From Antedon mediterranea (Eukaryota > Animalia > Echinodermata): DNA of 64,000 nucleotides. Below, in pieces: positions 19,401 through 48,525 of the stretch; the first letter of the stretch is position 1, and each line of letters opens with the position of its first letter. The position numbers were made by a program, and so were the translations under genes. The DNA is taken from the NCBI RefSeq assembly GCF_964355755.1, contig NC_092679.1, positions 5,672,201-5,736,200 of the forward strand, given 5' to 3'. The notes under the pieces were generated by a model. The model worked only from the letters and a program-made list of their open reading frames with translations. It had not been told where the DNA came from and did not search any database.

Positions 19401-22400
19401 GACAAGAGTTTGAAGGTAAAATTAGATCAGTACAACATGAGGAAGAAATGGCAAGGGAAAAATTAGCAAATCTATCTCAGCAGCTCAAAGAGGTAAATTG
19501 TACATTGTATAACATTGTAAATTAAGTACCAAATGCGAAAGTGGAACTAATGCACTGTTACACACTGTAAATATACATATACAGTGAGGTGCTGCAATGC
19601 AAGGTGCATGCTTGTCACCCGTGTTACTGCTGCTCTAGACAAATTAGTCTTATCTGGATTGATGTTAGTAAGATAGAAACTTTACCTGTTAATGATTATT
19701 TAAATAATTCTTGAAACTTCTAACTTCGACAGGAACGTAGTCTGCATGCAGAAAATGTAAAGGCATTTCAAGAAGACTTGCAAGATGCAAAGGTAAATTC
19801 ATATATGTATATAAATATTAGTAGTATAAACACACTTTTTTTCCTAGGGTATTGTTGATGTAGTATCATGGAAAATTGGCTGGGACGAAAGTGATAGAGT
19901 TCACTGTTGGAGTCCCCCGCTTCTGTGTGATTGGTTGTAGTGTAAAATCCGGAATAAATTGTATTGAATTATTTCTCCATGGTAGTATTAAGAAGGCAAT
20001 CTTAATTGTGTACTTAACACTAGCTCAAGGCAATTCATAAGCTAATTAAGTTAAACATCTTTATTCACCTGGTCTTCTGGCACCTATGATTTATATGACC
20101 CTTTTAATGTGTGATAATGTTATGTAACACCAAGAATATTAAATAATCTGATATTCAGAACAAAGCGATTGCTTCCATATTTAAATATTTGTTTTACAAT
20201 AATAATTTACTAAAGTGGCTATTGGTACTTTTTACAATATTGATTTACTAATTGTAGCTATTGGTACTTTTTACAATATTCATTTACTATTGTGGCTATT
20301 GGTACTTTTTACAATATTCATTTACTAATTGTAGCTATTGGTACTTTTTACAATATTCATTTACTATTGTAGCTATTGGTACTTTTTACAATATTCATTT
20401 ACTATTGTGGCTATTGGTACTTTTTTTAGAGCCATGAGGAAAGAAGAATTCAAGAATTGGTAATAAAAATGCGAAAAGATCGAGCTGATACTGATGCTGA
20501 AATTCAAGCTTTTAAGGTTTGTTCCGTCATTATAAAATAAAAATTTGTCCAATGTTTTATCATTTTGATTGTAATGTATTTGTGTAGAGATACTACTGTT
20601 TTAGACCAATGTTTAGCAAGAGAGACACCCTTGATTCCTCTGTGGCACTTAGGCAAACATAGGCCTACACAAAAGTAAGCTGATGCTATCCCAGAAAAAA
20701 TCCCCCAAAAAATACCAAGAGCGCTATAAAGGTATAACTATTCAATGTCTCTTGTCCTTAATTAGATTGAGTTGAAAGAAGAGCAATCGATCAGCCAATC
20801 GGCCAAGAAACAATTGGATAAAAGTAAATTAATAATCGATGATCTGACAGAGAAACTGTCTAAAGCAGAAGATGAGAACAACAAGCTTAAAATGCATTAT
20901 GATCGAATGAGGCAACGATACGAGGAGCAGGCACAGCTTACCCAACTTGGAGAAAGCAGGTAGTGAGTTCTTGTACAATAATTAAGGATGTAGGGAATGG
21001 GTTTCTGTTTAGTGCAAGATTCTGTAATTGATTTTGAGATGATAATAAATTTATATTTATTCTGATACAAAGTGTTTATTTTTTATAACTACAGACTAAC
21101 AAAGTTAGAACGGCGCTACCAAGATCTCCAAGACAAATCCCGAGACCAGTCTGTAGATTATGACAGCGCCCTCAGTAGCATTGGCAATGATATTGACACT
21201 GTTGTTCACATCTTGTCTAAAGATGTCGGTGACCCTTATGCCACGATCCAATCACCAAAGAAAGATTTCAAATTCCAGCCACAAAAATGGCTAACAAGTT
21301 ATAGGGTTGGTTGTACATTTTATGTTATTTTATTTTTAACAAACAAAAGTTAAGTAAGAAAATAAATATTTTATAAGTGGTCTATCAAGGTGAAGCTGGA
21401 TCCCTCATTGGTACCTTTATTTCAACGTGAAATGAGGTGAATGAAATCCATAAGACATGATGTTAAATATAATAAACAAATATAAATAAAATATATTAAT
21501 AATGTGACTGCCATCAGTTCAGCACCTACCCAGAAAGGAATTACTAACCAATTTAATTGCATGTTAAAGGGGTTGCGTTAAAAAAAATATAACCATTTTG
21601 ACAAAGTAAATTATTTTTCAGAACAAACTACGTTGGGTAAATGACGAGTTAAAACAGCAGCTGAAGAATGAGAAGCATTTAAGGCAAGATCTGAACCACA
21701 GCAGAGGAGACATTGATGAAGCGGTGAAAACATTACGTGAAGAAAAAGAAGTTTTTAACTTAGAGATTGACCGCCATTCAAAGGCTTTGGATGAGTTACG
21801 ACTAGAACGAAAAAGTAAGTTAAACCATTTAATTTAGTTTATGATTGATGGAATCTAATTTGGAATTCATTATATATCTTCTTATATTGCAACAGTCAAA
21901 ATATGGTTTAATCATTTATGTATTTTTTATGATTTTCCTAATAACAACAAAATCTAAATCGGTTAAATATCAATCTTAGATGCTTCAATCAAACCATGGT
22001 TTAAAGCTCCGGTACAGGCATGAATTTTAAATATAATATTTGGTCAATTGTACATAAATCAAATATTTGTAACAGAAATCGAGACAAAAAAACATGACTT
22101 TCCCTTAATATGGTCAAATACAAAATTTTGCAAAATTCTTCCATAAAAACCAGGAAGACTTTTTTTCAGTAGTTAGGTAGTTAACCTAATGTAATAACAT
22201 GTCTGATGACTCCCTAGACGGTGAAAAAAGATGAAAATAAAAATCTGAAATTGAATAAAAATATCAGAAATGTAATATTCAAGTTATATTACCTATATTT
22301 AGTCATCTGATAACATTTTTTACCACACCGTTTATTTTTCATAGCTTTTTAAAATGCCTCTCTATTTACAAAATTTGTGTACAAAAGAATAGAGATTTTA

Positions 22401-23991
22401 CTGTGTAATTTGAACTGATAAGAAAGTGCTTATTTTCAACAAGCTCGTGTAACACAAATAAAATCCAAAAAATTATGAAACATAGGGGAAACTAAAGATC
22501 AATAATTATTGGAATGTATGATCAATAGAAATCTTTTGCCCGCACCTGGCCTTTAGAGCATTTTTTTATAACACTTCTTTCTACTTGATACTCACATAGA
22601 ACTTGAGCACGACAACTTAAGAAAAACTGAGATGATGCAGTCATTGGAAAAGCAGGTTGTCTCACTGGAAAATCACATAGGAAAAGTATGGATATCACCT
22701 ACAATGTGTATAAATGCATTGAGATACTCAAAGCATATCATAAGAAAACATTAAGCAGTGACTAACAGGATAAAAATAAGCTAGTGAAGTTTGTCTTTTT
22801 ATGTGTCTTTAATACTGTTTGATTAATATCAGTTTATATGTACACTATGAAATAATTGCTATTATTTTCTTCTAAATAAATTTTTAAATAAAATCTTTCT
22901 ACTAAAAAAGAGTTAATCTTTTTTTTTAGAATACTAGCATTCCAATGAGAAGTAGTGAATTGCTACCCGAGAGGGACTCTGTATCATTTAAATCAATAGA
23001 CGATGAAAATAACCAAATTAAAGTAAGTTATACATAAACCAATATATTTATGATGTTTTTAACTACCACTCCTGAAAGTGCCAATAAAATTAATCTAGAC
23101 ATTTTGTTACAATATTAAGTATTTATCTGTTATTTTAGGTATTACATAATGAGCGTGATATAATTAATGAACGCTACCAAAAGTATCGAAGTACAGTAGA
23201 TTCATTGCAACAACAGCTGGAAAATGCCAAATTATCAACTCAACATCAGTATCAATCTCCAGATGCCAGTGTAGAACCACTGCAAAATGCGAGAAAACCA
23301 ACCCGTAAACGTCGTGTCCAGATTAGTAACTCGCCTCCAGTGAGGTACGACGCTAGTCAAGAATCAATGCATGAATTTGATGACAGTTTATCATTTATTC
23401 AACCACTCAAAGGTATGTCAATAAAAAGGATAGGTGTTTTTTGTTTCAATCGATTTTGACTCCAGACAGCGTCATATTTACAAGGTCTATCGGGTCAAAA
23501 ATTTTCGTCTAGGCCCTAGCGCAGAGATGTAAATTTACATCATCGTGCTAGCCTCCCGCATAGATGGAACTTTTTGTACCGATTGAACTTGTAAATATGG
23601 CGCCCTCTGGAGTTATCAAAGTTGTTTATTGCGTATCATAAATATAAAAGTGATTGTTAATGTTTGAATCCATAAACTTATATAAATATGCATACAAATT
23701 ATTAATTTATTAAAATGTTAAAGTTATAACTAGCCTCTTTGACTATTGATATTCATATTATTATTCAACATATTAAGTTATCTTACCTGCATGTGTTCAA
23801 GCCAAATAATCTCATACCTTTCGCATATAAATCCATTCAATATGATTCCTTTATTTTGTTCCTTAGGAAGGAGATCAAAGTCGTCTCTGAAAAGCAAAAG
23901 AGGAAATCATGAGACCAGACAACACACTCCAGAACCATTGGATATGTCTGATGGAGAGTTTATGAAGAGGTTCATTCCAGACACCCCATGA
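13402..23991 (+). CDS. CEP128: Centrosomal protein of 128 kDa, 22 coding exons, ~1130 aa
   Basis: N-terminus VEKLTSTLR|DTDRNLYSVDHMLNTYR...AINR|LRDSL matches CEP128, then long coiled coil. Phase-consistent exons: 13402-13548, 13956-14042, 14273-14428, 14617-14688, 15051-15215, 15778-15903, 16090-16381, 16698-16867, 17085-17350, 17706-17880, 18197-18316, 18992-19123, 19331-19492, 19733-19792, 20430-20516, 20766-20959, 21095-21305, 21622-21814, 22600-22685, 22930-23022, 23139-23412, 23867-23991. Confidence 0.9.
17908..18139. repeat. 81-bp intronic tandem repeat x~3
   Basis: tctgctgcagttactgca...gtgctctatacacaga repeated three times. Confidence 0.92.
18470..18810. repeat. ~17-bp intronic minisatellite (ttattcactttaatac)n
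   Basis: About 20 degenerate tandem units. Confidence 0.9.
20195..20427. repeat. ~38-39-bp intronic minisatellite abutting a CEP128 acceptor
   Basis: gctattggtactttttacaatattcatttacta units x~6. Confidence 0.9.
23460..23612. mobile_element. Short hairpin MITE-like element in last CEP128 intron
   Basis: ctccagacagcgtcatatttacaag ... cttgtaaatatggcgccctctggag imperfect inverted repeat. Confidence 0.5.
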
Positions 23992-26075
23992 GATACTATG
24001 CAATGTTTTAATTTCATTATACACTATGCAAGTCTGGTTTAATAATATTACTGGAGAGAATCTAATACCCCTAACACCACCACCACCGAGCTTAGAATAA
24101 ACCTGTGTCATGTCTGGATAAATTTCCATTTTACATCTGATTCATTAACCTGGGAATGACACGGATTGCATGCATCTACACTGCAAAATACAACCCGTGT
24201 AAATGTTATAGATTTATCGAAATATCGCCCTCTAATGCATGAAGAGACACTCTAGTAACGGTCTGCTCATTAATATACCTCCATGACTCCTCCTTTTGTC
24301 ATGGCAATACAAACAAATTTAGACTACTCATGAGGAATAATATTTCTGTAAATACAAATGAAAAACAAATAATCATACGTTTTATTTATATAAACAAATT
24401 AATAAACAAAATCTTTTCTTTTTATATAAATTAAATACAATAATGAGCGAGGATAGAAACCAACTGGGTGAATATATGCAGGACTGTTTACGTTCGCGAA
24501 CATGCAAGTACACGGGTTCGTCCCGGGTTGACTTGATGTTGAATGTTTAATTGTATAGGTAACTGTTTGTTTAAAAGATTTTACACTGTAATTCAGTGTA
24601 GTTATAACTTTATTAGAATATGTAAATGCAATGTGTACATAATGATATTTAAGGTATGTACAGTCATAATTCTATATGGTTTTTTTAATATTTGTAAAAA
24701 CAGATATTGATATTTTTATTGACTTCTGTAAATTTTCTGGTGCTAACTAATATTGAGCTGATTGCTGTGTTGTATTTACTCTGTTTTATATTGTGCCACT
24801 CAATTGAATTTCTTTTCAATAAAAACCAGTACTAGCATTCTCAAATGTATTTCATATCTGTTTCATTTGTAAATGTATTGTGTAGAAAACATCGGGCCTG
24901 TTTAGCAAGAGAAAAACAACAAGAGTGCTAACTAAACCATATAACTCTTCAATTACAATATATTAGTGCAGACATTTTAAAGACCACAGTTTAGAAAGCC
25001 TTTTAGGCCTAACATACTTATAAAGCAAGACATAGGCAGTAACCTATACACTTGTGGACTCACTTGGTTGTTACAAACATCTTTTGTATTATCTTTGTGG
25101 CACTCCATGAAACATAAGCCCTGTGTCAAACACATCTCTAGGCTGTAGTTACCCCAACAAATATTTGCAAAGAGTGCTAAATGATGCCTAACTGAATTGT
25201 AATGAAATTTGTAAATAATAACTGTAATCAGGCCTATTTTAGGGAGACCAAGGTTTAGCAAGATGAGTTTTGTAGGTCCCGTGTACTTTATGCTTGTGAA
25301 CTGAGACTCCATTGATTTGTTTGTGTCTGTCGGGTAAACACAGGCCTGCGGCCTGCCTAACACAAACACTTAGCTGGGGGCCTCCCCAAAAACCAAAATA
25401 AAGTGTGCTTAGCATCGTCGATTGAAAGAGAGGCCTAGCTAATATATTAGATAGTTATTAATTAAATCTATCCATGCCTGAGTTCGGGTTGAGATATACT
25501 GTAAAATAATTTGCTAATTGCTTTTCAGGAGTCAGTTCCTAAACAGTATTTTACTCACATTGTTTGGCCTTGAATAGTAGGCCTACATGCTCCCATCGAT
25601 GCCGACTAAGTCTACAGTTATCGTCTGACTTCCGCGAAAACAATCCAATGATCTGATTGGTCAAAAGTCGGCCTTCTTTGTTGGACGAAATTGAAAAAAA
25701 AGTACAACAACGATCATTATTTTAGTGTGATCGTTTGTGAGCATGCTTTGTAGTCTGTCCTTTTTAGATAACCTATCGATTTAAATGTAACCAAATGTAT
25801 TATTTTATTTTATCTTATGGTATTTCTTAGCCATATATTGGCTGTATAGCAATAACTGACCTCGTCTATATTTCCGGTTTACCTAGGAAAGACACTCGCA
25901 AGGTATAGGCCTACTATTAATTTCACCTTGCTGCTACGCAGAAATGATAATCTCAGATGTTTTTAAATGACCAGTAGAGCCTCCGTTTCCTGATTGAATG
26001 GAATAGGGAGACGGACGTGTGATATCTACAAGGCCTGAAGTACCTGGTGGTTCGTCAATTTGGCCGATAGGCCTA

Positions 26076-26416
26076 TGTTGAGCCGTGAAATGTGCACATT
26101 TGTGCTAACAACCACATTTGTGCAAACATGGCACCCTCAAATGTGCAAACAACCACATTTGTGTAAACATGGCACCCTCAAATAATGTGAAATAGATCAG
26201 TTTTGACGTTAATGTACAAACAAAATTCTAAAAATGTTAAAATAAAACATATTACACAATGTTGTGCAGATTCAAATTGCCCAACGATATTTTTGCGCTA
26301 TTTTAATAGATTTGCACATTTGAGGGTGCCATCTTTGTACACAATGTGGTTGTTTGCACATTTGAGGGAAACATGTTTGCACAAATGTGACTTTTTGCAC
26401 ATTTAACAGCTCAACA
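26076..26416. mobile_element. TGT..ACA MITE-like element with aaatgtgcaaac subrepeats (counterpart ~31376-31778)
   Basis: TGTTGAGCCGTGAAATGTGCA / TGCACATTTAACAGCTCAACA inverted termini; no clear TSD. Confidence 0.55.
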
Positions 26417-27392
26417 CGGCACAATAGTTATTTCTTCCTGGACTCCAATACCAATAAAAAATACATGAATTAAATATATCAGCACAATTTAGACTACCTT
26501 TAATTTTAAAAACAAGGTATTAAGAACAAGATTTGAGAGTTATTTTGTTAGCCTAATTGTTTTAATGAATAATCTATAGGCTAACACCGACGTATGCAAA
26601 ATGTGTACTTGTCGGGAGTGTGACAAATGTTTGATGCGCTACTGCTTTATTGCGGCGAAGTTTCAATCATGATTCTGTAAGAAAAATAAATGGAAGAAAA
26701 TTTTCGGATAATCGGCTTCAAAGTTAATTCAAATAATAATACGAGCATAAACTTATCGGGAGTCACCAACTTCCTGTTGTTAGGCTAGGATTAATAATCG
26801 ATTGGGATTCATTTCCTTTTGGTCGGTGGGAACAACCATTACTCCGTAGAACAATTACAGCCCGACAGTCTTCATAGGACGACTGCAGCGTACACCTAAC
26901 AGGTAAGATTACAACTTTGTTTTTGTTGAAATATTAATTTTCAAACAAATGACTGCAAAGTATATTATTTAACGAATCAAGCAACGTATTGGAGGTGGGA
27001 GACACCAGGGAGATGTAATATAAATATCTCTGGAGACACTGGCAATTTGCAACACAAAATAAAATTGGAAAAAAAGCAACAACAAAAAACAAACTTTAAT
27101 TAAGGTTCTAACAGAAAAGTCAATTGCTGCTTTATTTCAGATGCTTCATTAAACTAAATAAAATTGGAAAGTATTTTAAGTTATTTAGCGCTCCACAATA
27201 AAAAAAAAAGGGGGAGGGGTGTCTGTACTACACCATCCTAATAACAACGAATAGCCTAATCATGACCTCTACTACACTTAAACATTGCATAAATTCATCC
27301 ACAATGAATAAAATTATCTAATGGTTTTAAACTTTGCTTCGAGTCGGAAACAAATATAAGTGAACTTAATTTCTTTAATTTTCTTGCAGACT

Positions 27393-29913
27393 ATGGCTGT
27401 TCTTAGGTTTTTTTGTTTCGCGCTCATTCTGAGTCTTTGTTTCGGCAGAGCTATGACGAATGAAACGGAGAATATAATTAAAAATATTCGAGCATTGATT
27501 TATAAGGCACTCTACGATAATGTTCTTGAGAAGACCGGAGGACCAAATGAGCTGAATACCCTTGTACTCCTAGATCCCAGTATTCCTTTGAACAAGGAAG
27601 ACATTGGACACACACCAGATCCATCAACGCCACCAGATTTGTCAGAGTTCAATAATCTACTTCCTACTAAACTGTTAATTAACAACCTGAACTACAAAAA
27701 TGCACCTATAATCCAAAAGAATGGCGTTGCACAAGTCTACAAAAAAATATTAGACAAAATGATCGTTGAAAAACCAAAGTTAAATAACATTGAACAGAAC
27801 AGATACAACGAAGCGGAGATTTTGACTAACGAACGCGTTTCTGGTTCGGTGATTGGACGTACAAGTAATGAAGACGTAACTAAATTGGAAGTTTATCGCC
27901 ATTTTCGGTCAATTTACTTCAATGCCAAAGAAACCAAGGAAAAGGAGATTTATGAAAAGAAAAATACACTGAGTTCAATGGAATATCGAAATTGGTACAT
28001 GTACAATTATAGAAAATTAAAAGATAACGAAAAATCTGCTCTACAAGATTGGGTGATTAAAGGCTACAAGAAGATCATCAGTGAAGCGCTGGAGATCATT
28101 GATGACGTTGATGAAATTTCTATACTAGAGATAGACGATGCAAAGAATGAATACGAGGCCGCTATTTACGAAAACGAAAACGAATTGAGCTTTAAGAACA
28201 TAATCAAAGATAAGATTAAATATGATGTTGAATATTCCCCAACAAATTGGAACGACCATCTATATGATCAAATGTAAGTTTTGTTTTTTAAGATAAGTAT
28301 ATTTTCTATCATGCCTGATATTTTATTTCATTGATTTTGCAACCGATTATAGGTACTCTTATCACTGGTAGGCCTGCATTACTAGCAAATCCCACAAACA
28401 ATTATTTTCTTAATCATTTTTAATATTATGATTTGTTTACAGACATGCTCCGACACCAACTTCTTCTCAATATCTAAACATGATTGTTGATCTGAAAGAG
28501 TATTCAATCGTACTACAGGCTATCGCCAACGCTCACGCATCAGACGCAGTCGAAGCGCAAGACAATATCAATACAGACGAAGCGACTGTGAAAGCTCAAG
28601 AAGATGCACTAGTAATACAGGTTGCTGAGTTGATAAAGCAGCTTGACGATTGCAATGAATTAAATATGAATTGCTTAAGCGTCGATGCACTCGCTGAAAA
28701 ACAGAAGAACGATACACTTAAGTGGGAAGAAAATCAGACACAACTCGATGAATACAAACTAATTCTAAAGAACGCCAACAGTATCAAAACGGCGGTTGAT
28801 AATCTTATCATAAAGATTGGAGATAAAATAATCAAGTATGAAGAGGATTACGAAAATGAAAAGATTATTGAGTTAGAAACGGACAATGATTTGTTAAATA
28901 ATCATGACTTCCCTGAGGAGGAATGGGAAACCTTCTATTTTAATTCCCAAATTGAGCTGAGAAATATTAACAACGAAATTGGAAGAATTGCGGAATTCAA
29001 ACCAGCAAAAATTAACAAAGAATTTAAGGAGATTATTGAAAAACGTGGCTCTAAGACTCTAAAATTAGAAATCAGAATGCATTACAGAGGTGTTGGTATC
29101 TATAGGCCTTGGTTTAACGAAGAAATATTTAAGAACGATAACATCAAACTTGTAAGTTGCCGTTAATATATTTCTCTTGAATTTTTTTTATTTTTTATCA
29201 ACATGTTGAAGGAAAGAATGGAACGTATATCTCAACACCTTTAAAGCCATTTTAGTCTTACCTACTTATCGTTATTTTTGCTATTGAATTGTAAATTCTG
29301 AAGTCTATTTTAATATCAGGCAGGGGAATTTCACTATTCTTGACAAAAAAAGTGATCTTTTAAAGGGAAACTTTGTGTGGGTCCTGAATGTCCCTTAATA
29401 TTTGTTTACTATAGTTTTACGGGTTTTTTCATGTAACTTAAAAAATTATATTTATGTTTTTATTATCTGATTTAGAATGACAAAACATTGGTATCACCTG
29501 GCTACAAAGACGACCTGATTAATGAATTAAAAAAGAAAACAAACAACAACAACGACAAAGAAGATCTGTACAAATTCCCTCTTTATCCGACGGGCCTCCT
29601 CATTGCCAAAGACATCAAGATGAAAATCCGTGGTTTAAATGAGAAAGTGGGCAAGGAGTTGATCGAGAATTCCTACAACGCCGATCAAATCGGCATCGAT
29701 CCTCCAGAAATTATTGCTGATGATAACAATGACAACGATAACAATGCAATCCACCACTATGGAGAAATATTCGGGTTTACGTACAATAACCGTGATACCA
29801 ATGCAGTTCGCTATAGAGTGAGACAGGACTACAATGACGTCGACATAGAATTACTCGAGCCACATATTATAGGTCAGTACTGTGACATCATGAAGAAATT
29901 CCCTAAAAAATGA
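27393..29913 (+). CDS. Uncharacterised secreted protein, copy A (~675 aa, 3 coding exons)
   Basis: Exons 27393-28273, 28443-29151, 29476-29913 join in frame with GT-AG; signal peptide MAVLRFFCFALILSLCFG; 5'UTR donor cag|gtaaga at ~26902; AATAAA ~30066. Confidence 0.9.
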
Positions 29914-30125
29914 GGACCTTTTAGTTTTTGTATGTAGTAAATACTTGTAGTACATGTAGATTTTAATCCTTAAAGGGCGTACACGTGTAAATCCAAACTT
30001 ACCACTAGACATACCTGTATAGAGAAGAAGACTTCTGATACAATTTTGTTACACATTGGAATACAAATAAATTCTTGAATTGAATCTAGTATTGTATTAA
30101 CAAATTAAGTATGAAATTTTTAAAA

Positions 30126-30270
30126 GTAATAGTTGACGCGAATTAGTAATAGTTGACGCGAATTAGTAGTTGACGCTAATGTAGTAGTTCACGCTAATTA
30201 GTAGTATTTGACGCTAATTAGTAGTAGTTGACGTTAATTAGTAGTAGTTTAAGCGAGTAAGTAGTAGTTT
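30126..30270. repeat. ~20-bp tandem repeat (gtaatagttgacgcgaatta)n; counterpart 35648-35760
   Basis: Tandem units downstream of each duplicated gene. Confidence 0.85.
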
Positions 30271-30506
30271 TATACTTTAATATTGTGACTCTGAATATAG
30301 TAGGCCTACAAATGTAAAACAGTTTTTAAAGAGTTCCAAATCAACATGTTGAAACATTTAATAAATTGTTTTTCCAAAAATCTTTGTTTACACTAGTGTT
30401 CCTCTTGTTTAAAACCTTACCATTATTTTGTACATTGAAGGAACTGAGTGTATAAAGCAAAATGAAGTGTGCTTAGCATCGTCGAATGAAAGTTGGAGGC
30501 CTAGCT

Positions 30507-30750
30507 TTTTTTTTTATAAACCATATTTAATGAGAGTGATCCATCCAGCTATTGCTGATCATCAGGGACCCTCAGAGGTTCACAAGACAAACATATACAA
30601 GATGCTTTACATAAACAAAGTCTTAATACAAATCTTTGGGAGTGGAGTTGTAATTTGGTCCTTTGAAAAAATACTGACATGTGACGGGACTTGAACCCAG
30701 GACCCTTGGAGTGGTAGCCAAGCATCATAACCACCAAGCCACAACTCCAA
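30507..30750 (-). mobile_element. tRNA-derived SINE present only in duplication unit B
   Basis: Minus strand A box TGGCTTGGTGG, B box GGTTCAAGTCC, poly-A tail (T-run at ~30506-30515); absent at the equivalent site ~25440 in unit A. Confidence 0.75.
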
Positions 30751-32922
30751 TTAGATAGTTATTAATTAAATCTATCCTTGTCTGAGTTCTGGTTGAGGTA
30801 TACTGTAAAATAATTTACTGATTTGCAGGAGGCAGTTCATAAACAGTATTTTACTCACATTGTTTGGCCTCCAATAGTAGGCCTACATGCTCTCCTCGAT
30901 AAGTCTACAGTTATCGTCTGACTTCCGCGAAAACAATCCAATGATCTGATTGGTCAAAAGTCGGCCTACTTTGACGCATTTGGAAGATAAAACAATACAA
31001 CGCCGACAATTATTTTAGTGTGAACGTTTGTGAGCATGCTTTGAAGTCTGTCCTTTAAATAACCTATCGGTTTAAATGTAACCAAATTTATAGTTTTAAT
31101 TCATTTTTATGATATTTCTTAGCCATTTATTATATTTGCTGTAGCTATAACTGACCTCGTCTATATTTCCGGTTTACTATAGGAAAGACACTCGCAAGGT
31201 ATACAATTAATTTCACCTTTTTATAAGTTGATGCTACGCAGAAATGATAATCTCAGATGTTTTTCAATGACCAGTAAAGCCTCCGTTTCCTGATTGACTG
31301 GGATAGGGAGACGGACGTGTGATATCTTCAAGGCCTGAAATACCTGTTTGTTGTACATTTTGGCCCGCAGGCTTATCTTGAGCCGTGAAGTGTGCACATT
31401 TGTGCAAACAACTACATTTGTGTAAACATGTTGCTCTGAAATGTGCAAACAACCACATTTGTGCAAACATGGCACCCTCAAATGTGCAAGTTTGTAAACA
31501 TGTATTTAATCCACTAATGTGCAAACATCACGCCGTTAAATGTGAAAAAGATCAGTTTTAACGTTAAATGTGCAAACAAAATACTACAAAATGTGCAAAT
31601 TATTTTCTTTAACAAAATTAATGAATTAACAGGAAAATAATATAGATGAAGTAGGTAGGCCTTGTGGATGAGTATGGTGTAATCCAGGCGAACGAATGTA
31701 ATGCGTGACGTTTGCACATTAGTGAATTATACAGATTTTCACATTTGATGGTGTCATGTTTGCTCATTCAGGGCAACAGTGTAATATTTTTAATAAAATA
31801 ATATAAAATCTGTTTTGTGAATTTCCTTTAAAACAAGAGGACAATGATAAGGAACTATTTCAACGGTATGGAAGTCATCATCATCTCCAGCAAACAGCGA
31901 CCATGTGTCAGTCCTGCATTCCCGGGACATGATAGTGTTTTTTCTTTTTTCAAAACGATTATGTCAACCTCTATTAATAATTAAATATGTAAGTGGCTAT
32001 ATCTTTAAATCATTGACAGATTGAGCCTGTTCTTTCGTTAGTCTTATTGTTTAAATGAATGTTATAATCTAGGCCTATAAGCAAAATGTGTACTTGTCGG
32101 GAGTGCGAAAAATGTTTGATGCGCTACTGCTTTATTGCGGCGAAATTTCAATCATGATTCTGTAAGGAAAATGAATGGGAAAACTACTTCCCTGGAAGAA
32201 AATGTTTGGATAATCGGCTTCAAAGTTAATTCAAACAATAATACGAACATGAGAATAAAAAGGAGTCACCAACTTCCTGTTGTTAGGCTAAGATTAATAA
32301 TCGATTGGGAATTATTTCCTTTTGGTCGGGAGGGAACAACCATTACTCCGTGGAACAATTACAGCCCGACAGTCTTCATAGAACGACTGGCCAGCTAACA
32401 GCTAACAGGTAAGATTACAACTTTGTTTTTGTTAAAATATTAATTTTCAAACAAATGACTGCAAAGTATTTTATTTAACGAATCAAGCAACGTATTAGAG
32501 GTTGATATCGAAGAGTAAACATTCGAATTTCATGTCGACCCGTTTTGAATGTTTGTGGAGGGAGACACCGGCATTTTGCAACACAAAATAAAATTGGAAA
32601 AAAGCAACAATAAAAAAAAACAAATTTAAACAGAGTTCTAACAAAAAAGTCAATTGCTGCTTTATTTCAGCTGCTTGATTAACTAAACAAAATTGGAAAG
32701 TATTATCAAGTTATTTAACGCCCCACAATAAAAAAAAAAGTGGGGCGGTGGATGTCTGTACAACACCATCCTAATAACAACCATTAATCATGGTCTCTAC
32801 TACACTTAAACATTGCATAAATAATGCACCCAAAATGAATAAAATTATCTAATGGTTTTAAAGTTTCCTTCGAGTTGAAAAAATATAAATGAACTTACTT
32901 TTCTTTAATTTTCGTGCAGACT

Positions 32923-35438
32923 ATGGCTGTCCTTAGGTTTTTTTGTTTCGCGCTTATTCTGAGTCTTTGTTTCGGCAGAACTATGGCGAATGAAACGGAG
33001 AATATAATTAAAAATATTCGAGCATTGATTTATAAGGCACTCTACGATAATGTTCTTGAGAAGACCGGAGGACCAAATGAGTTGAATACCCTTGTACTCC
33101 TAGATCCAAGTGTTCCTTTGAACAAGGAAGACATTGGACACACACCAGATCCATCAACGCCACCAGATTTGTCAGAGTTCAATAATCTACTTCCTACAAA
33201 ACTTTTAATTAATCATCTGAACTACAAAAATGGACATATAATCCAAAAGAATGGCGTTGCACAAGTTTACAAAAATATACTCGACAAAATGATCGTTGAA
33301 AAACCAAAGTTAAATAACATTGAACAGAATAGTTACAACGAAGCGGAGACTTTGACTAACGAACGCGTTTCTGGTTCGGTGATTGGACGTACAAGTAATG
33401 AAGACGTAACAAAATTGGAAGTTTATCGCCATTTTCGATCAATTTACTTCAATGCCAAAGAAACCAAGGAGAAAGAGATATATGAAAAGAAAAATACACT
33501 GAATTCAATGGAATATCGAAATTGGTACAAGTACAATTATAGAAAATTAAAAGATAACGAAAAATCTGCTCTACAAGATTGGGTAATTAAAGGCTACAAG
33601 AAGATCATAAGTGAAGCGCTGGAGATCATTGATGACGTTGATGAAATTTCTATACTAGAGATAGACGATGCAAAGAATGAATACGAGGCCGCTATTTACA
33701 AAAACGAAAACGCATTGAGCTTAAAGAACATAATCAAAGATGAGATTAAATATGATGTTGAATATTCCCCAACAAATTGGAACGACCATCTTTATGATCA
33801 AATGTAAGTTTTGTTTTTAAGACAAGTATATTCTCTATCATGCCTGATATTTTATTCCATTGATTTTGCAACCGATTCTCGGTACTCTAATCACTGGTAG
33901 GCCTACATTAACTAGCAAATCCCACAAACAATTATTTTTAATGTTATGATTTGTTTACAGACATGCTCCGACACCAACTTCTTCTCAATATCTAAACATG
34001 ATTGTTGATCTGAAAGAATATTCAATCGTACTACAGGCTATCGCCAACGCTCACGCATCAGACGCAATCGAAGCGCAAGACAATATAAATACAGACGAAG
34101 CGACTGTGAAGGCTCAAGAAGATGCACTAGTAATACAGGTTGCTGAGTTGATAAAGCAGCTTGACGATTGCAATGAATTAAATATGAATTGCTTAAGCGT
34201 CGATGCACTCGCTGAAAAACAGAAGAACGATACAATCAAGTGGGAAGAAAATCAGACACAACTCGATGAATACAAACTAATTCTAAAGAACGCCATCAGT
34301 ATCAAAACGGCGGTTGATAATCTTATCATAAAGATTGGAGATAAAATAACCAAGTATGAAGAGGATTACGAAAATGAAAAGATAATTGAGTTAGAAACGG
34401 ACAATGATTTGTTAAATAATCATGACTTCCCTGAGGAGGAATGGGAAACCTTCTACTTCAATTCCCAAATTGAGCTGAGAAATATTAACAACGAAATTGG
34501 AAGAGTTGCGGAATTCAAACCAGCAGTATTCAATATCGATAGTCCTCATAACGTACTTGATGTGATTGTTCGGAGAAATGAGAATCTAGAATATGAAATC
34601 AGAATGCATTACAGAGGTGTTGGTATCTATAGGCCTTGGTTTAACGAAGAAATATTTAAGAACGATAACATCAAATTTGTAAGTTGCCGTTAATATATTT
34701 CTCTTGAATTTTTCAAGTTTTTTTTTATCAGCATGTTAAGAAAAGAATGGAACGTAGGCCTATATCTCAACACTTAAAGCCATTTTAGTCTGAACTACTT
34801 ATCGTTATTTTAGCTATTGTATCTTGTAAATTCTGAAGTCTATTTTAATATCAGGCAGGAGAATTTCTTGACAAAAAAAATTGATCTTTTAAAGGGAAAC
34901 TTTGTGTGGGTCCTGAGAATGTCCCTTAATATTTGTTTACTGTGGTTTTACGGGTTTTTTCATGTAACTTAAAAAATTATATTTATGTTTTTATTTTCTG
35001 ATTTAGAATGACAACACATTGGTATCACCTGGCTACAAAGACGACCTGATTAACGAATTAAAAAAGAAAACAAACAACAACAAAGAAGATCTGTACAAAT
35101 TCCCTCTTTATCCGACGGGCCTCCTCATTGCCAAAGATATCAAGATAAAAATCCGTAATTTGGATGAGAAAGCGGGCAAGGAGTTGATCAAGAATTCCTA
35201 CAACGCTGATCAAATCGGCATCGATCCTCCAGAAATTGTTGCTGATGATAACAATGACAACGATAACAATGCAATCCACCACTATGGAAAAATATTCGGG
35301 TTTACGTACAATAACCGTGATACCAATGCAGTTCGCTATAGAGTGAGACAGGACTACAATGACGTCGACATAGAATTACTCGAGCCACATATTATTGGTC
35401 AGTACTGTGACATCATGAAGAAATTCCCTAAAAAATGA
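32923..35438 (+). CDS. Uncharacterised secreted protein, copy B (~676 aa, 3 coding exons)
   Basis: Exons 32923-33803, 33961-34678, 35007-35438 join in frame; same intron positions and phases as copy A; intact ORF. Confidence 0.9.
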
Positions 35439-36761
35439 GGACCTTTTAGTTTTTCTATGTAGTAAATACTTGTAGTACAGTAGATTTTAATCCTTAAAAT
35501 ACACGTGTAAACTTTTAATCCAAACTTACCACTGGATATACCTGAATAGAGAAGAAGACAGATTTCTGATATAATTTTGTTACACATTGGAATACAAATA
35601 ATTCATGAATTGAATCTAGTATTGTATTGAGTATGAAATTGTTAAAAGTAATAGTTGACGCGAATTAGTAATAGTTGACGCGAATTAGTAGTAGTAGTTG
35701 ACGCGAATTAGTAGTAGTTGACGCTAATTAGTAGTAGTTTAAGCGAATAAGTAGTAGTTTTATACTTTGATATTGTGACTCTAAATATAGTACAAATGTA
35801 AAACAGTTTTTAAAGAGTTCCAAATCAACATGTTGAAACATTTAATAAATCGTTTTTTTCAATAATCTTTGTTTACACTCTTGTTTAAGACTTCACCATT
35901 ATTTTGTACATTGAAGGAACTTACTGAGTGTATAAAGCTACTATATAAAAAATATAACAAGTAAAGAATCCATACAAAATGAATATTATAAATAAATATC
36001 TGCTACAAAATACCTACAACTAAGATTATCAAACAGAAAGCACCGATATATGAAGACTGGCAACTAACTACTACTGTTCTCAAATATTAAAAGACCATGT
36101 CAAAATTATTCTACTTTTTGCTTAATTTTTAATTATTCAGCGAGTTTGGGAGTGACCGCATCTTTGAAAGAAATTATATACATAACATCTTTTTTTACAG
36201 TATAGTTGTTTCTGCAGTACAATAATTTTGACATGATGACTAACTCAATTCCATTTTGCATTGAGATGTATCAACATTAATTGATCTTTACAAACAATCA
36301 AAATTCATTTTGGATGGACAACTTAATTTTAAGCTGTCTTGCAGCTGAGAGTTGTACATAATATATTCAAATGTTCAACATTTTTTCCATAAAAATGTTA
36401 ACTGTGTGTCAGTGGAATTATCACTGCTTCATAGTCTAATGGAAGTCAACCTCTAAGGCAGAAAAGCTTGACCTCTGGCTCTGACCTCAAAACCAAAATT
36501 CACCCCTATCAACAGTTTAAAAAACAAATGACCACATGATTTCTAGCCCTACACTAATACATATATATAATTTTCTACCATATAGTTCTACCGTTAAGAT
36601 GTGCATCTCTCTACGGCCAAACCTTCCTACAACCTTGTGCCTATTATATCACAACCATGTAATGCGATGTATAAGTTCATACAACATTCCAGAATGTTTC
36701 TGAAATGGAAGTATTTAACACACAACCTTTGTGAAGAAAGAAGAGTGAATCTTCGGTAACA

Positions 36762-39700
36762 TCACTTCTTGTCGTTGACACTCCGTCGTGGTGACCTCCT
36801 TGGCGACGTTGAAAGAAGAGGATTTGCTGAAGCTATTCGGACTGTCTTTTTCTGAGTGGGTTTGTGAAGAGGCTTCATTTTTGGTGGGGGTCGAAATTTA
36901 GGTAAGCGAACAGATTTTGTTTTTGTATTATGAGTTTCATTCTGAAAGACACAAAATTATGAGAAATAAAACAAAACTATTTTTTACAAATTATAAAACT
37001 ATGTATATTTGAAAATGATAAAGGGTACAGTTACGCAAAATGATACGAGCACTGTTTTGGAAAATAAGGTTAGAGCCAAAGACACGAACAATGAAAGTGA
37101 TATCATACAAATTTTAGAGGGCAGTATCTACCTTGTTATAGAATGTAAATTCCGAACATGATACAAATCTCAAATCCTTCTAAAAACATCTGCTCAATTG
37201 TCATATTACCAAAATTACCAGAAAGGGGTTAGTCAAGGAAGCTATCACAACACAGGTTGGTATGTAAGCATGTGCCTGTGTTTATGATCTATTGTTATGG
37301 CTATAATGTTATGGCAATAAAAAACTTTTAATTAATGTAAATATCAAGATGGAGAATATTCAAAATCAATAGAACCGTACCGTGGTGGTAATCGCTGGAG
37401 CATGAACACTGATCATGTGAACAAGCATCTTTTTCAAACGACCAGTACACTTTCTGTCAACGTCATCTTCAAGCAAAACCCCGTACCTTCGCTTATATTC
37501 ACGTCGAATTAACACAAGATCAATCTAAATGAAATAATAAAATTAAATTCATATTTTTTTTAAGTGAAATTTAAACAATTATGTAAAAAAAAACATAATA
37601 TGAAATAATTTTGCATACATGCATTTTGCCTGTGGCATTATAAGGCAAAATGATTTCATGCTATTGATCCCATAAAAAAAAAAATTAATAAAATGTGAAA
37701 ATGTGTGTAGTTGGGCGCTTTCTTGTAGATGCTTTAATTGTAGAACGTAATTATTTATTAATTTTTTTCTTTCTGTGCTCTGTTCTGGGTTGACCAACTA
37801 GCATAGGTGTTTAGCACCTGTTTGGTCTTTCCTTGCCTTTTATAATTGTTTTGTCTTCTTTGTAATGTATATGACAGAAATTGAATAAATACAATAAATA
37901 AATAATAAAATAAAAGGTGAATAAAGAAAATCTCAATATGCTATTCGGAAGTGCAGAAATCATCTTCTGGGTGTAATAGTCATTCCAATTACCTCTGCTC
38001 TTGTTGTGATAATTCTCAAGACAGTCAAATTATCACCTTTCTTCAAACTGCTGTGTAGAACATCCACAAAATACTGGACACAGTTATCAAAACATTTCAC
38101 TGGAATAAATAAGATCAAGTTAGTTAAGTTGAAGATGCTCTCCAGGAGGAATGCCATCCTGAGATGAGTAGCAGTAATTAGTCTTGTTTATTTTATTTCA
38201 TTTATATGTAATGTTTACTTTCTATGGACCAGAGATTCCGAAAAAAAAAAAGGTTGAATGAAATAACAACAATTATTAGAAATCCTAATACACTGGCGAA
38301 TGGTTTGTCTATCACTGTATATCATCTGTCAATTTACTGAAATATTTACTACTCTGCATCCTAAATTCGAAACACACTTATATGTCCTCGTCTCCCACCT
38401 AACCTAGATAAAAGTTATTTAATTTTATAATAATATAATAATAAAAACAGTTTCTTTAAATTGTATTTGTTGAATGGTGAAGATATTTCATAAGTTAAAA
38501 GATTGACTGAATCTTTCAACTCATAAAGTATATTCTCCATATTTAACTCCTGAACTTTTATTATTTGTATAATCATCTTACCTAATGTTAACATCATAAC
38601 TTTCATATCAGCTGCTAGAACATTCTGTAGTTCACGCTTAAGATTTTGTCCAGATTTCTAAATCAAACATTAAAATAAACATTAATTTCAAGTTCTTCTG
38701 TGGATAATATAAAACAGATATTGACTGCTTAGAGGTTAAATATTTACATAGGCTATGTAATATAAAACAATATTACATAGCCTATGTAAATACGCTAATG
38801 TGATTGGTTGAAACTGCATCACATGATTACCGCTGCGAGGATCGTAAATCGTATATATCCTCGAGAACGATGATATTGACTGTGTAATTTTCGCGTAATT
38901 ATCGTGTCCCCTGTCATTAAACATATAGATTCTCGAGTACGATGATATTGACTGTGTAATTTTCGTGTGCCAACACTAGCGTTGCCGATAAATAAACAAA
39001 AGTCATCTACTCGATCTTGAACTCGGGTGGAATTGTCACTCCATCGCAAGACAACGCTTCAACCGCTGCGCCACGGAAGTTGCTTGAAGAAATTAATCAT
39101 CTAAACTATTTAAACTATGCATACATAGCGCCCTCATTTGTTATAAGTCCACCCTAAATGTGATGAAACACCGTTTGTGATTGGTCAATACTCACGGTAG
39201 TAACCTAGTAACTAGTACGCGCTGAACATCCGGTGATTCGGCTCCTCGAAGATCGAGAAGAAGACGAATTGTTTATTCGGCCTACCTGATTATAATATTA
39301 TTATTTTTAATAGGCTTATTGATGGAAATTCTTCTGTTAATTTAAACGACCTAGGCCTAAGTGAATATTTTATTGCCAAGGAATCATTAATTAGTAATTA
39401 TCTGTATATTATTCTTCGCAAGGTAAGGTGTCTAGGCAGGCTTGTTTAAATACAATACAAATACTAGGATAGGAGGCCTAGCCTAGCTTCACCCAACCCA
39501 GCAGACTTGTTCTTGGCTATATAATATAACAGATATTGCCTTTTATATCGGTTAAATATAAGATTTGACATCCCCTCGGGAATGATATTAAGTTCTCGGG
39601 AAATATATATTCCCTCGAACTTAATATCATTCCCTCAGGGATGTCAAATCTTATATTTAACCTCTAAGCAGTCAATATCTGTATAGTATTGAATCTCAAA

Positions 39701-42700
39701 GTTGTATTTTAAAACCTTGTTCTTACCTGTGTGTATCTCTGGAAAACACTACCAATGTGTTCAAAGCTTTTATTTTCCATTAAATTAAGCAGCTGTCCTT
39801 CCACATTCCAGCGGCTGTCTCCAGCATCTATAAGGTAATCCACATCACTCTCCACTTCCTCTTCGTCCACTGACCCTGTCTCTCTCCTTGCTCCCTGTGA
39901 ATAAAAGAATGCAAAACATATAGGCCTAGAAGATATTATAACATAATCATCCATCCCCATGATCAAAGAGAATAACTGGTGTTTCTCAACGATTGCTCAA
40001 AAGAGTATCCAGATAGTCCAGTTAACTTATTTTTATTGCATGGCCTATGGGGTAACAATGAATCACTTCTTCTTGGAATTTCAAATATAAACATTTCACA
40101 TGCAGTTTCAATTTTGTTTAAAAAATGTTTACCAATTTGAAGAAACAATAAGCAAATACTTTTTAGTACACCAAGTGGTTTACCTTGGCTAAAGCTAGCA
40201 TCATCTTCATTGAATCTCCACTAAAATTGTCTTTAATGCCATCCTCAATAGTTTGATCAAATTCCATTTTGTAGGCATCCTTAATGAGGCTGATGGCCTG
40301 TAGGTACATGTAGAAGTATAAACAATGTAATGAATTGAATTGAATAAACTTGATAGGTGAACACATTAAACAACTAACTGCATATATAGAATCTCACCCT
40401 ATTCTGGGAAGTGAATACGTTACTGTGAAATGAACAAGGGGGAAATATACAAAAAAAGAAACACTGTACACTACTTAACTCCTATTCAGGGAATGTCCCT
40501 TGGTTGTGTCCCAAAGGTGTCCCCTTAATATGATTATTATTATATACACAATTGTTTTGTCACACACAATGCATAGACAGCTGGAGAATACACAATATAC
40601 AAAAGTAACTATAGTCTCAGATTATTACAGTAAAGTTTCTGTTTCATTACCATGATTACTTTTTATTATCAATCAAAAGAAAATCTGTACCTACCTTATT
40701 ATTTCGTGTACATAAGATTTCAACCATAGTTGTATAAGAATGGGTCTGAGGATAAAATGAGCATTTTTAGAATGTAGTAAACATTTAAAATAGACTATGT
40801 TGTTTTCCTCAGCATTCCCCATTTTACAACAAATCAACAAATTAAGAATTGTAATACTGGTAATTTCTTGTTATATAAAAAATGTCTTTTGCAAGTTTTT
40901 TCAGTTTATGGAATGGGTGTAGTTAAACACAACTTTTGTGTTTAAACATGTACAGAAAACTTACCAATAAGGCATGATTTAGGCACAAAGCATCATACGT
41001 CTGTCGTTCTTTAAGTAACGCATCAAAAATTGCATCATAATCTTCGCCTAACTTCGTTCTTAATTCAGTTTCAAGGTCCTAAAAGATAACAATTATACAC
41101 TTATAATGTCCATATTATAAGCCTACAAATCATTTTTTTTTCTAACGTGCTATTATGACCATATTGGCTTAATTGACAAGTTCCATAAAGCATCAGAATA
41201 TATTCTGCAACTTTACATGATCATGCTTGATTGTAAAAGTGATGACGTACAGTGGCATAAAAAATGTCTTATGATCATTAAAAATATTCAATTTCTTGAT
41301 ACTTACTAGTTTGTACTGAGCTTGGAACTTGACTTTTGTTTGGTGGCGCTGTGCATATGTCCGACGAACCAGTGCCTCTATCAGGTTTTTCTGTGTTTGC
41401 CCTTGAAAAATGAAAGATAAACAAATTGAAATAAATATTTCAACGACGTCTAAAACATAAATTCACTTGCAATGTAATATGCATCCCCATAAATTGGTAA
41501 TAGAAAATCATTGTAGAGGTTTTACAAATACATATGTACTGTAATACATAGTGGATATGTTGCTTTGCATTAAGTATGTTTAAACAAATCCAACAGCAAA
41601 CATTTTGTATATAAACATGAATTCACATACCTAGACCCTTTATTACCCTAAATAATTTAGTGGAATCTTCACCATCATCATATTCTTTTGGTTTACTAAA
41701 TTCCTTTTTCTGAAATTAAAACAATACATATAATATAATATTCAAATTTAATGATAATAAACTGAAATTTTTAATATAGCCAACAATTTGTACTCCTTTC
41801 CTAAATTAAATTTACCTTTTTTTTCTCCTGTTCCTTTTTTCTAAGGTTACCAATGGTTGGTAGTTTTGTTGGCTGTTTCTTTAACATTCTTTTTTCTGGA
41901 GAAGGTTTAATACTTTCTTGTTGCTATGGAAATAAATAATACGTTTAAAGGTATGCTATTCATTGTTTAAATAACACCTTAATAGCTAACCAAGGCCATT
42001 GGCTTCTAGTGTCACTAAACCTGATGGATGCACTGGACAACCTGTAGAACCAAGGTGAACCCTATTATAACTGAATTATTACATGTTTTTATTTATTTAT
42101 TGAACTTCTCACTAACTTACTGTTAGTGAAGGATCGGGATCAACAGGTGGTAAACAGTGGCTGTGTGTGACAGTGGCTGTTTGTGACAGTGGCCGTGTTT
42201 TGTGTGGACTAGTACACCGGGGTAACACCCTACTCGTCTGAAAAGATATACTAGGTTTTTTAAAGTGAGCTGTGTGTACACGATTTAGTGTCCTTATCTG
42301 AGAAGACTCGTTCTACCACCGGAACCATGGAGCGAGTGAGCCTCGAACCCTTGTAGTTTATGTCTTCAATTCACTTTTCTTCTTCTTGTGTAGTAATAAA
42401 ATAATAATCTCTCCCGTTTAGGCATGACAACCTTATTAGTTAATTAAAAACAGTTATTCAAATAATTATTAATTTCAACCTACCACTTCTTCCTCTTGTT
42501 TATCCCCAGTGTCATCTTCATTTGAAATCTTCAGACCTTCAAAACCTCTAGTATCTATCTCATACGATTTTGTTTCTTGTGTTTTTTGCGATAGGTAATA
42601 CTCATGCATCAGATACTCATCCTCCTATGATAATCAAAAGTTTAAATAACTCAAGTTTACAAAACAAGTTGAATATACCTTTCAAACTTATTAAGCTTGT

Positions 42701-47183: not shown

Positions 47184-48525
47184 TGTTATAATCGTTAATG
47201 TAGAAAACGCCAGCTAATGTCGAAACAACCGTTAATGTAGAACAACCCACCGCTTATGTAGTAAAACCTCCAGCTTATGTAGAAACACCAACAGCTTATG
47301 TAGTAAATAAAAATCAACACCAGCTAATGTAGAAACAGTCAACAGCTTATGTAGTAACGAAAATTGCCTCCCAGCTTATGTAGTTACTATCGCCAGCTAA
47401 TGTAGAAAATGTTATATATTTTACAAAAATGTCTCATTTATGTGCAAGCATCGATCTTTACTTAGCTATCAGTCTTTCCACCTCTCGTAAGCAACCAACT
47501 TTCTAAAACGACCACACATCTCCTTAGTAGTGGCAACCATCTCTGTTAAGGGACCGCTTCTCATAATCGACCACCTCTCGTAAGGGATTACCTCCTCTCA
47601 TAAGGGACCACTTCTCATAACCGACCACCTCTCGTAAGCGACCACCTCTCTTAAGGACCACACCTTTCGTAAATGACCACCTCTTTTAAGGGACCACGAC
47701 CTCTTTCTCTCTATTAAAGGACCGCTTCTCATAATCGTCAGTGACGACTCTTTTAAAGGACCACCTCTCTTAACGACCCCACCTCTTGTAAGTGACGACC
47801 TCTTATAAAGGACAACCACCTCTATTAAGGGACTGCTTCTCATAATCGACCATCTTCCATCACAATGACCTCTCGAAAGTGACCACCTCTATTGCGACGA
47901 CCAGTGTCTCTGTTAAGGGACCGCTTCTTATCATTGACCACTTCCGAGAGGTGGTCGATTATGATAAATGGTCCCTTAAAAGAGACGGTGGTCATTCAAT
48001 AGAGGTGATCACTTACGAGAGGTGGTCTATTATAAGCAGTGGTCCCTTAATAATAGAAACGGTGGACGTTCAACAGAGGTGGTCACTTACCAGAGGTCGT
48101 TGTGACGGGAGATAGTCGATTATGAGAAGCGGTCCTTTAATAGAGAGAAAGAGATCGTGGTCCCTTAAAAGAGGTGGTCATTTACGAGAGGTGTGGTCGT
48201 TAAAAGAGGTGGTCGCTTACGAGAGGTGGAAAGACTGATAGCTAAGTAAAGATCGATGCTTGCACATGAATTATAGACATTTTTGTAAAATATATAACAT
48301 TTTCTACATTAGCTGGCGATAGTAACTACATAAGCTGGGAGGCAATTTTCGTTACTACATAAGCTGTTGACTGTTTCTACATTAGCTGGTGTTGATTTTT
48401 ATTTACTACATAAGCTGTTGGTGTTTCTACATAAGCTGGAGGTTTTACTACATAAGCGGTGGATTGTTCTACATTAACGGTTGTTTCGACATTAGCTGGC
48501 GTTTTCTACATTAGCGGTTGTAACA
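47184..48525. mobile_element. 1.34-kb foldback element with TGT..ACA termini and 5-bp TSD (Ginger-like, non-autonomous)
   Basis: GTGCA at 47179-47183 and 48526-48530; outer ~300-bp arms nearly perfect inverted repeats; inner arms built of gaccacctctc/aagggacc subrepeats; centre ~47942. Confidence 0.8.

Follow-up and report, generated by a model that had tools for sequence, protein, structure and literature searches.

A duplicated feather-star gene encodes a degenerate member of an unnamed cross-kingdom protein family with a probable beta-pore fold

The window analysed here is the whole 64,000-nucleotide stretch of the Antedon mediterranea genome (contig NC_092679.1, positions 5,672,201 to 5,736,200), and it contains two tandem units about 5.5 kb apart, each with one copy of the same gene. 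The product of copy 1 is identical throughout to a protein deposited at NCBI as 'uncharacterized protein [Antedon mediterranea]', hereafter P0001. Our results place P0001 in an unnamed family of bacterial, fungal and animal proteins, typical members of which carry two candidate membrane hairpins, both of them degenerate in P0001. A first reading of the DNA made without database searches (the sequence-only reading) had proposed a pore-forming effector acquired from a microbe and later given introns. Since both hairpins are degenerate, P0001 is not supported as the pore itself, and since both coding introns are common to sponge-type genes, the gene was likely not taken recently from a microbe. 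We tentatively suggest that P0001 may be a secreted, non-inserting partner or regulator of P0002, an intact paralogue in the same animal.

Results

P0001 belongs to a widespread family without a name

A phmmer search of 1.84 billion representative sequences retrieved 17 proteins, the query included, of which those with a name are the second Antedon protein (P0002), a protein of the sponge Ephydatia muelleri, those of the fungi Thelephora and Fusarium, and those of a Marinifilaceae bacterium and the cyanobacterium Moorena (the remaining 10 being without a name). In this search P0001 and P0002 share 24% identity over residues 29-598 (E-value 9e-24). Profiles from which P0001 was left out score it with E-values of 4e-47 (A7, residues 34-674) and 1e-43 (A3), and profile A5, which holds four bacterial proteins only, covers both of its domains at E 4e-4; the reversed P0001 sequence, used as control, scored below 0 bits. 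P0001 is therefore homologous to the unnamed family of P0002, P0005, P0010 and P0011, colinear with it across the N- and C-terminal domains, and the resemblance to hypothetical bacterial and fungal proteins proposed by the sequence-only reading proves real from end to end. The eight motifs that this reading named in the protein also stand in the claimed order (residues 216, 229, 281, 455, 513, 564, 626 and 659).

Additional members were found on plasmids (3 records), on GTDB contigs (3 loci), in 3 of 401 Bacteroidota and 5 of 401 Cyanobacteria genomes (the seed genome being included in each count), and at 16 metagenomic loci, with interrupted genes in L001-L013 and uninterrupted genes in L014-L016. 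One plasmid-borne member (L017, 6004-8460) lies beside an OmpA-family gene and restriction-modification genes, and another locus (L019, 1742-6790 and 10662-11532) is clustered with a radical SAM gene, TIR-domain genes being nearby. In the Ephydatia gene models P0005 and P0020, the C-terminal ~170 residues do not align to the last exon of the family and have the appearance of a repeat-derived exon joined by mistake. In the ESM Atlas, P0002 is grouped, at 0.95, with a cluster without name that counts 1,353 members from bacteria and ascomycetes, and no common Pfam family was found in any of its 30 matches; for P0001 the Atlas gave no usable feature match and a poor model.

Pfam and NCBIfam gave no match for the copy exons or P0001 and nothing meaningful for the 16 homologues or the 36 alignment members, for which PADLOC likewise gave no match, and PDB sequence searches returned coiled-coil noise or nothing. 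No family match was found on viral contigs or in the first scan of genome contigs. Note that word-indexed searches with P0001, A2 and P0002 returned the query only and missed known homologues, hence they are uninformative on absence. The literature searched held no description of the family or its accessions, although subscription papers, patents or supplements could hold one.

The predicted fold of the family and the degenerate hairpins of P0001

AlphaFold2 modelled the intact bacterial member L021a (36 rows) with a predicted local distance difference test (pLDDT) score of 81 and a predicted template modelling (pTM) score of 0.72, in the order N-terminal strand, helical domain, strand 285-290, disordered insert, strand 339-350, strand 388-402, second insert and strands to 466. 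The model of P0001 (51 rows, pLDDT 74, pTM 0.59) repeats this order with the addition of a coiled-coil hairpin at residues 301-440. Both models display strand-insert-strand twice with low-confidence inserts, as read from secondary structure only and not from strand pairing. According to PMC11952106, MACPF/CDC proteins have a core twisted sheet and two hairpin-forming bundles, where gasdermins have loops, and the strand order of L021a and P0001 matches the one described there for the MACPF/CDC and gasdermin cores. The hhalign comparison of the core with five CDC-family sequences was colinear over 99-124 columns, with the third core strand on the YGR strand, a register noted beforehand from known motifs; its P-value is 0.07-0.12, and block shuffles reached the score in 2 of 60 cases and the length in none of 60. 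The nearest named clusters to the Atlas features of P0002 are Thiol_cytolysin (0.82) and MACPF (0.81), values below 0.9 being leads only, and Porin_4 was weakly matched by 5 of the 10 core sequences (best E 4e-4). Altogether, the family probably has a beta-pore fold. The proposal of a MACPF/CDC- or gasdermin-like pore former is partly supported for the family, by the hairpin-like segments flanking the predicted sheet and by weak CDC and MACPF leads, but not for P0001 as the effector.

Typical members carry two Ser/Thr/Gly-rich segments of ~50 residues between strands of the predicted central sheet. When rows labelled divergent beforehand are left out, hairpin 1 measures 47-67 aa (mostly 50 or 54) with a summed Ser, Thr and Gly fraction (S+T+G) of 0.30-0.50 (n=27), and hairpin 2 is mostly 46-50 aa long with 0.22-0.60 (n=25); P0002 is typical in both (0.50 and 0.53). 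In P0001, hairpin 1 (43 aa, window 28942..29070, plus strand) has an S+T+G of 0.12 and a charged fraction of 0.37, and hairpin 2 (70 aa, 29632..29841, plus strand) has 0.11 and an acidic insert, both below all 27 and 25 typical members. We call degenerate those members that lack the two Ser/Thr/Gly-rich hairpins, as P0001 does. The segments before the RPW and PHIIG motifs, described earlier as hairpin-like, are so by composition in the family and not in P0001.

Paired paralogues

In the insert-less bacterial subgroup, an adjacent same-strand paralogue was found at 8 of 10 loci (one of them only a fragment). The bacterial partners that were measured have a hairpin 1 that is either reduced to 18-39 aa or enlarged to 93 aa, and some carry C-terminal extensions, one of which is PLAT-like (E 1.6e-4, just under the cut-off). 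The extension of a hairpin-less partner (L021, ~6210-6687) had no Pfam match, and we take it to resemble a beta-sandwich of the aegerolysin/actinoporin type. At L006, an intact and a degenerate intron-bearing gene stand head to head. Intron-bearing members lie head to head within ~200-300 nt at L002, L004 and L006; the plus-strand gene of L004 is without intron 2, and L006 holds the start of a third copy. The complex prediction for the C-terminal cores of P0002 and P0001, made without alignments and with the partner fold uncertain, scored 0.00, a value that speaks neither for nor against their pairing.

Introns shared with sponge-type genes

Interrupted metagenomic genes that group with the named Ephydatia protein in trees are termed sponge-type here. 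Intron sites in homologues were taken as donor consensus at breaks of tblastn matches, with no transcript check, and the duplicates L003, L008 and L010 as well as exon 1 of L011 were dropped from the comparison. Intron 1 has a phase-2 donor in all 12 intron-bearing homologues. This donor follows the Trp of the P.NW motif by 7 codons in ten genes, by 8 in one and by 10 in one; in the window gene the distance is 8. Intron 2 has a phase-0 donor in 10 of 11, located 13 codons (seven genes) or 14 (three) after the Trp of RPW, the window gene having 13. For Ephydatia, a genomic fragment with the same residues as the spliced protein stops matching it exactly 13 residues past the RPW Trp. The chance that two randomly placed introns would match those sites is ~3e-6, and a splice-site preference would raise this value, though hardly to a plausible level. 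Both introns thus match sponge-type homologues in position and phase, intron 2 in Ephydatia too, which argues strongly against a transfer from a microbe to a crinoid followed by intron gain. The long exons (881, 709 and 438 nt) had been noted as unusual for the window; their lengths are as stated, but they are a trait of the family and no sign of recent transfer, because the intron-bearing homologues have them too.

An older microbial origin, before the animal radiation, is possible. The trees quoted here are quick trees, 4 of 43 rows having been left out in one and 12 more in the next. They group all animal rows together with modest support (Shimodaira-Hasegawa-like approximate likelihood ratio test, SH-aLRT, 89, 83 and 79), and P0001 forms a very long branch nearest P0002, no other animal row having one as long (2.27 changes per column). 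By themselves the trees do not settle the origin, because approximately unbiased (AU) tests do not reject the placement of P0001 with either bacterial group or with fungi (p 0.165, 0.167 and 0.268). Orthology of P0001 to the sponge-type degenerate clade was considered and was not recovered in the trees.

On balance we favour vertical descent from the common ancestor of sponges and bilaterians, with wide loss. It is less likely that a crinoid ancestor received an intron-bearing copy from a sponge-like animal, a scenario for which speak the many losses that vertical descent needs, the lack of any other named animal among the 17 phmmer matches and the word-indexed searches that gave the query only. 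However, these searches are insensitive and missed known homologues, both Antedon proteins fall outside and not inside the sponge-type clade (SH-aLRT 81-82), and the nearest rows are only ~35-38% (P0002) and 25% (P0001) identical. Origins other than these two appear very improbable. The shared introns turn an apparent transfer from microbe to animal into a choice between ancient inheritance with massive loss and transfer between animals.

Structure and divergence of the two copies

Each copy is made of three coding exons separated by GT-AG introns and reads through without internal stop, and the products (675 and 676 aa) are identical at 628 of 672 aligned residues (93.5%). All features of the two units are on the plus strand. 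Tandem unit 1, with gene copy 1, extends over approximately 25928..30460, as delimited by sequence and by the repeat families D8-D19, spaced at 5300-5531 nt. The 5' non-coding exon of copy 1 (26830..26902, start approximate) was placed from its copy 2 equivalent and ends at a cag/gtaagat donor. The coding exons of copy 1 were defined by splicing and translation, and the strands and helices in them by the model. Exon 2 (27390..28273, ATG at 27393, coding 27393-28273, 881 nt) encodes the predicted signal peptide (~residues 1-20), the N-terminal strand 55-65 and the helical domain, and ends at the shared phase-2 intron. Exon 3 (28443..29151, 709 nt) encodes the coiled-coil hairpin and core strands 456-465 and 499-514, and ends at the shared phase-0 intron. 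Exon 4 (29476..29913, 438 nt, stop codon included) encodes degenerate hairpin 2, which has an Asp/Asn-rich insert, together with the core strands on either side of it (566-582 and 643-668). Tandem unit 2 (31228..35940, bounds approximate, from sequence and repeat spacing) holds copy 2, the 5' non-coding exon of which (32336..32408, start approximate) was located from a GT..AG joint between 32405(+3) and 32917(+3) in a contig of run X9 that is of copy-1 type at the cassette described below. Exon 2 (32920..33803, ATG at 32923), exon 3 (33961..34678, with the alternative cassette at ~34526-34594) and exon 4 (35007..35438) follow from comparison of the copies.

In runs X5 (organism A) and X9 (related organism B), contigs join the coding exons with both introns removed exactly, and X9 additionally has the 5' non-coding exon, its donor joined to the acceptor before the ATG. 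Because the joins are exactly GT-AG, these contigs indicate transcripts, though neither run is recorded as RNA. The spliced pieces listed are of copy-1 type, none of copy-2 type being among them. The signal peptide noticed earlier agrees with a hydrophobic N-terminus as judged by hydropathy only (best 15-residue Kyte-Doolittle mean 2.44 at residue 3, and never above 1.11 after residue 30), and the Cys pair of the coiled-coil insert was located as Cys364 and Cys371, at the turn of the predicted 301-440 hairpin. P0001 has a net charge of -31 and three N-glycosylation sequons.

The hypervariable cassette announced by the sequence-only reading was recovered, and in the first hairpin region as proposed, since 14 of the 44 substitutions between copies fall within residues 476-500. 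Outside residues 483-502 (29008..29067 in copy 1), the proportions of synonymous and nonsynonymous differences are pS 0.081 and pN 0.020 (pN/pS 0.24); inside, they are 0.55 and 0.54, values that rest on 11.5 synonymous sites in a poorly alignable segment. Half of hairpin 1 is freely replaced between the copies. From this difference, the cassette would be either much older than the remaining divergence or a replaced segment, and the flanks may have been homogenised while this divergent segment was protected. The copy-2 cassette is covered in run X6 (organism B) at a contig depth of 29.6 and shows none of the gaps found in X5 and X9, which hints at the presence of both cassettes in both species. 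A pseudogene was ruled out (intact frames, pN/pS 0.24), as was bacterial contamination (GT-AG introns, spliced contigs, and the menin gene found elsewhere in the window). That two alleles were falsely assembled as a duplication is a lesser possibility; run X1 contains both the copy-1 and the copy-2 version. In X1, the contig depth of copy-1-type letters over window 33082-33742 is ~16 and that of copy-2-type ~8, about double, and X6 has two variants at depths ~45 and ~28. These values, though not copy numbers in themselves, hint that the copies are hemizygous or unequal in number.

Genes and repeats around the units

Upstream, minus-strand exons of menin (MEN1) lie at 1534-1926 and 9330-9899 (Pfam E 2e-40 and 2e-35), and a plus-strand multi-exon gene for a coiled-coil protein (~16090-24000), with no family above the cut-off, ends just before the duplicated units. 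Downstream, short exon-like open reading frames (ORFs) of a minus-strand gene lie at ~36700-41500 and 53821-54291, one ORF of 156 aa having no Pfam match. A ~1-kb element that contains inverted repeats and is likely a non-autonomous DNA transposon occurs in two copies of opposite orientation (~6430-7414/58389-59642, also 8813-9063/59006-59256) that are 92-98% alike. A palindromic element at 47184-48525, whose 251-nt arms are 98% complementary and which also has nested inverted repeats, is likely a miniature inverted-repeat transposable element (MITE) or a foldback element. The spacer between the units holds a high-copy repeat at ~30500-30750 (contig depth in thousands), and a short inverted-repeat element starts each unit (~26100-26400 and 31400-31620) and may have promoted the duplication.

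Discussion

By profile and motif, and thus at the level of sequence, P0001 falls outside the CDC, MACPF and gasdermin families. The closest organisation is that of the CDC-like two-component toxins of Bacteroidota (CDCL-L/CDCL-S; PMC11169675 and PMC11952106), with which the family has in common the paralogue pairs in operons, the extra C-terminal domain that one partner often carries, and a two-hairpin core, predicted in the family. According to PMC11169675, one large subunit anchors and recruits ~30 small ones. The family also shows a weak colinear profile match to CDC-like proteins across hairpin 1 and the next two strands. A two-gene organisation with unequal partners occurs at 8 of the 10 insert-less bacterial loci and at none of the 4 insert-bearing ones, the two genes being unlinked in Antedon. 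However, PF01289 (Thiol_cytolysin) matched neither P0001 nor the 36 members (hhalign probability 0.5-1%, P 0.05-0.37), and where PMC11169675 gives YGR and GG motifs, most members have Arg-Asn at the aligned site, without Tyr-Gly. Unlike CDC-like toxins, the family has a helical N-terminal domain of ~220 residues, a coiled-coil insert in animals, fungi and some bacteria, partners with lost or altered hairpins, and animal members with signal peptides and introns.

MACPF/perforin proteins and the complement membrane attack complex resemble P0001 and P0002, which are animal proteins predicted to be secreted, have a predicted sheet with two flanking segments and, as unequal paralogues, could co-assemble, the Atlas feature score of P0002 being 0.81. 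In contrast, PF01823 matched neither P0001 nor family members, hhalign aligned a single hairpin by composition (37 columns, the reversed control being nearly as good), and the family is without EGF, TSP1 or LDLRA modules. The hairpin regions of gasdermins are loops according to PMC11952106, and those of the family are loops or disordered in the L021a model too; gasdermins and pyroptolysins occur in bacteria, fungi and animals, as does the family (bioRxiv 10.64898/2026.10.05.756811), in which preprint a pyroptolysin is a gasdermin-CDC chimera, different from the family. No PF04598 or PADLOC match was found in the family, and a scan of 341 genomes for gasdermin sequences gave none over the cut-off. 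Unlike gasdermins, the family has its core at the C-terminus and not at the N-terminus, is without a C-terminal inhibitory or CDC domain-4 module, and its animal members are predicted to be secreted (from the predicted signal peptide) and not cytosolic.

By analogy, we propose that the family may work like a two-component CDC-like or complement-type system. Intact members would assemble edge to edge into oligomers, and both hairpins of each would enter the membrane to form a beta-barrel, as in CDC, MACPF and gasdermin. P0001, which keeps the core motifs, would co-assemble or bind its target without piercing the membrane, and would act as a surface-binding platform, nucleator or brake that nucleates or limits P0002 pores. 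The cassette in the former hairpin 1 would then be a surface specificity loop kept different between the copies.

Several observations weigh against this proposal. The literature searched held no tested function for any family member. The CDC profile match is not significant, and P0001 has Lys-Asp at the YGR-aligned site, without Tyr-Gly, so that YGR is not kept. Six structure searches (Foldseek against PDB and viral models, VIA-align) returned coiled coils or noise only; their lists were filled by matches to two helical regions (124-243 and 295-447), there was no separate model of the core, and a pore former is not thereby excluded. P0002 lies on a different contig (longest contigs 41.4 versus 25.0 Mb), unlinked to the P0001 gene, and P0001 is without the extra C-terminal domain seen on bacterial partners. 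Insert-bearing bacterial members, which are nearer to the animal and fungal ones, had an adjacent paralogue at 0 of 4 loci, with short flanks. Finally, P0001 does not group with the sponge-type degenerate clade, so that its degeneracy would be independent.

Three other explanations have to be weighed. Folds of pore families have been co-opted for non-lytic roles, as in astrotactin, BRINP and Torso-like, and P0001 could similarly be off pathway in a beta-pore family, as a secreted, acidic, glycosylated protein with a ligand-binding, adhesive or matrix role independent of P0002. The degeneracy of both hairpins, the longest animal branch, the charge and sequons, the lack of linkage to P0002 and of an extra binding domain all fit with it; nevertheless, the core motifs around both hairpins are kept, and a degenerate partner next to an intact member is seen again in bacteria and at L006, and we regard it as unlikely. 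An autonomous effector, whose helical segments would refold into membrane hairpins as in MACPF/CDC bundles, is improbable. In CDC proteins the hairpins need not be rich in Ser or Thr, the AlphaFold model of P0001 has helices in both segments (466-494 and 586-601), their 43 and 70 aa suffice to span a membrane, and aromatic and Gly residues persist at 626-633. Yet the S+T+G of P0001 is the lowest of all measured members with 30-37% charged residues, hairpin 2 has prolines and the Asp/Asn run, the tight hairpin lengths of the family are broken, and half of hairpin 1 is exchanged freely between the copies.

Rather improbable as well is that the family forms no pores, the Ser/Thr-rich segments being polymerisation or strand-exchange arms of a filament or coat protein and the likeness to CDC, MACPF and gasdermin superficial. 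This would agree with the lack of any Pfam, NCBIfam or PADLOC family, PDB sequence match or fold match and with the P-value of the CDC profile; on the other side stand the conserved length and the expected order of the two hairpins, the colinear CDC register, the porin-like strands, and a patchy, operonic and plasmid-borne distribution typical of conflict systems.

Besides our preferred reading of P0001 as a partner or regulator of P0002 there is a broader one, which is possible but doubtful as a whole. The family would be a fourth giant beta-pore branch in addition to MACPF, CDC and gasdermin; it would occur in bacteria, fungi and sponges, be secreted in animals, and have survived in, or been passed between animals to, a bilaterian; it would work as a complement-like two-component system, in which the feather star has a degenerate subunit with a swappable cassette for targeting or control. 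The cassette, kept divergent with a pS of 0.55 against 0.08 elsewhere, is likely a specificity site. If the fold holds, the family would be an unnamed cross-kingdom family of large pores, one Atlas cluster alone counting 1,353 members, and, as one animal has both an intact member and a degenerate one, an early-animal innate-immune or defensive pore system would become directly testable.

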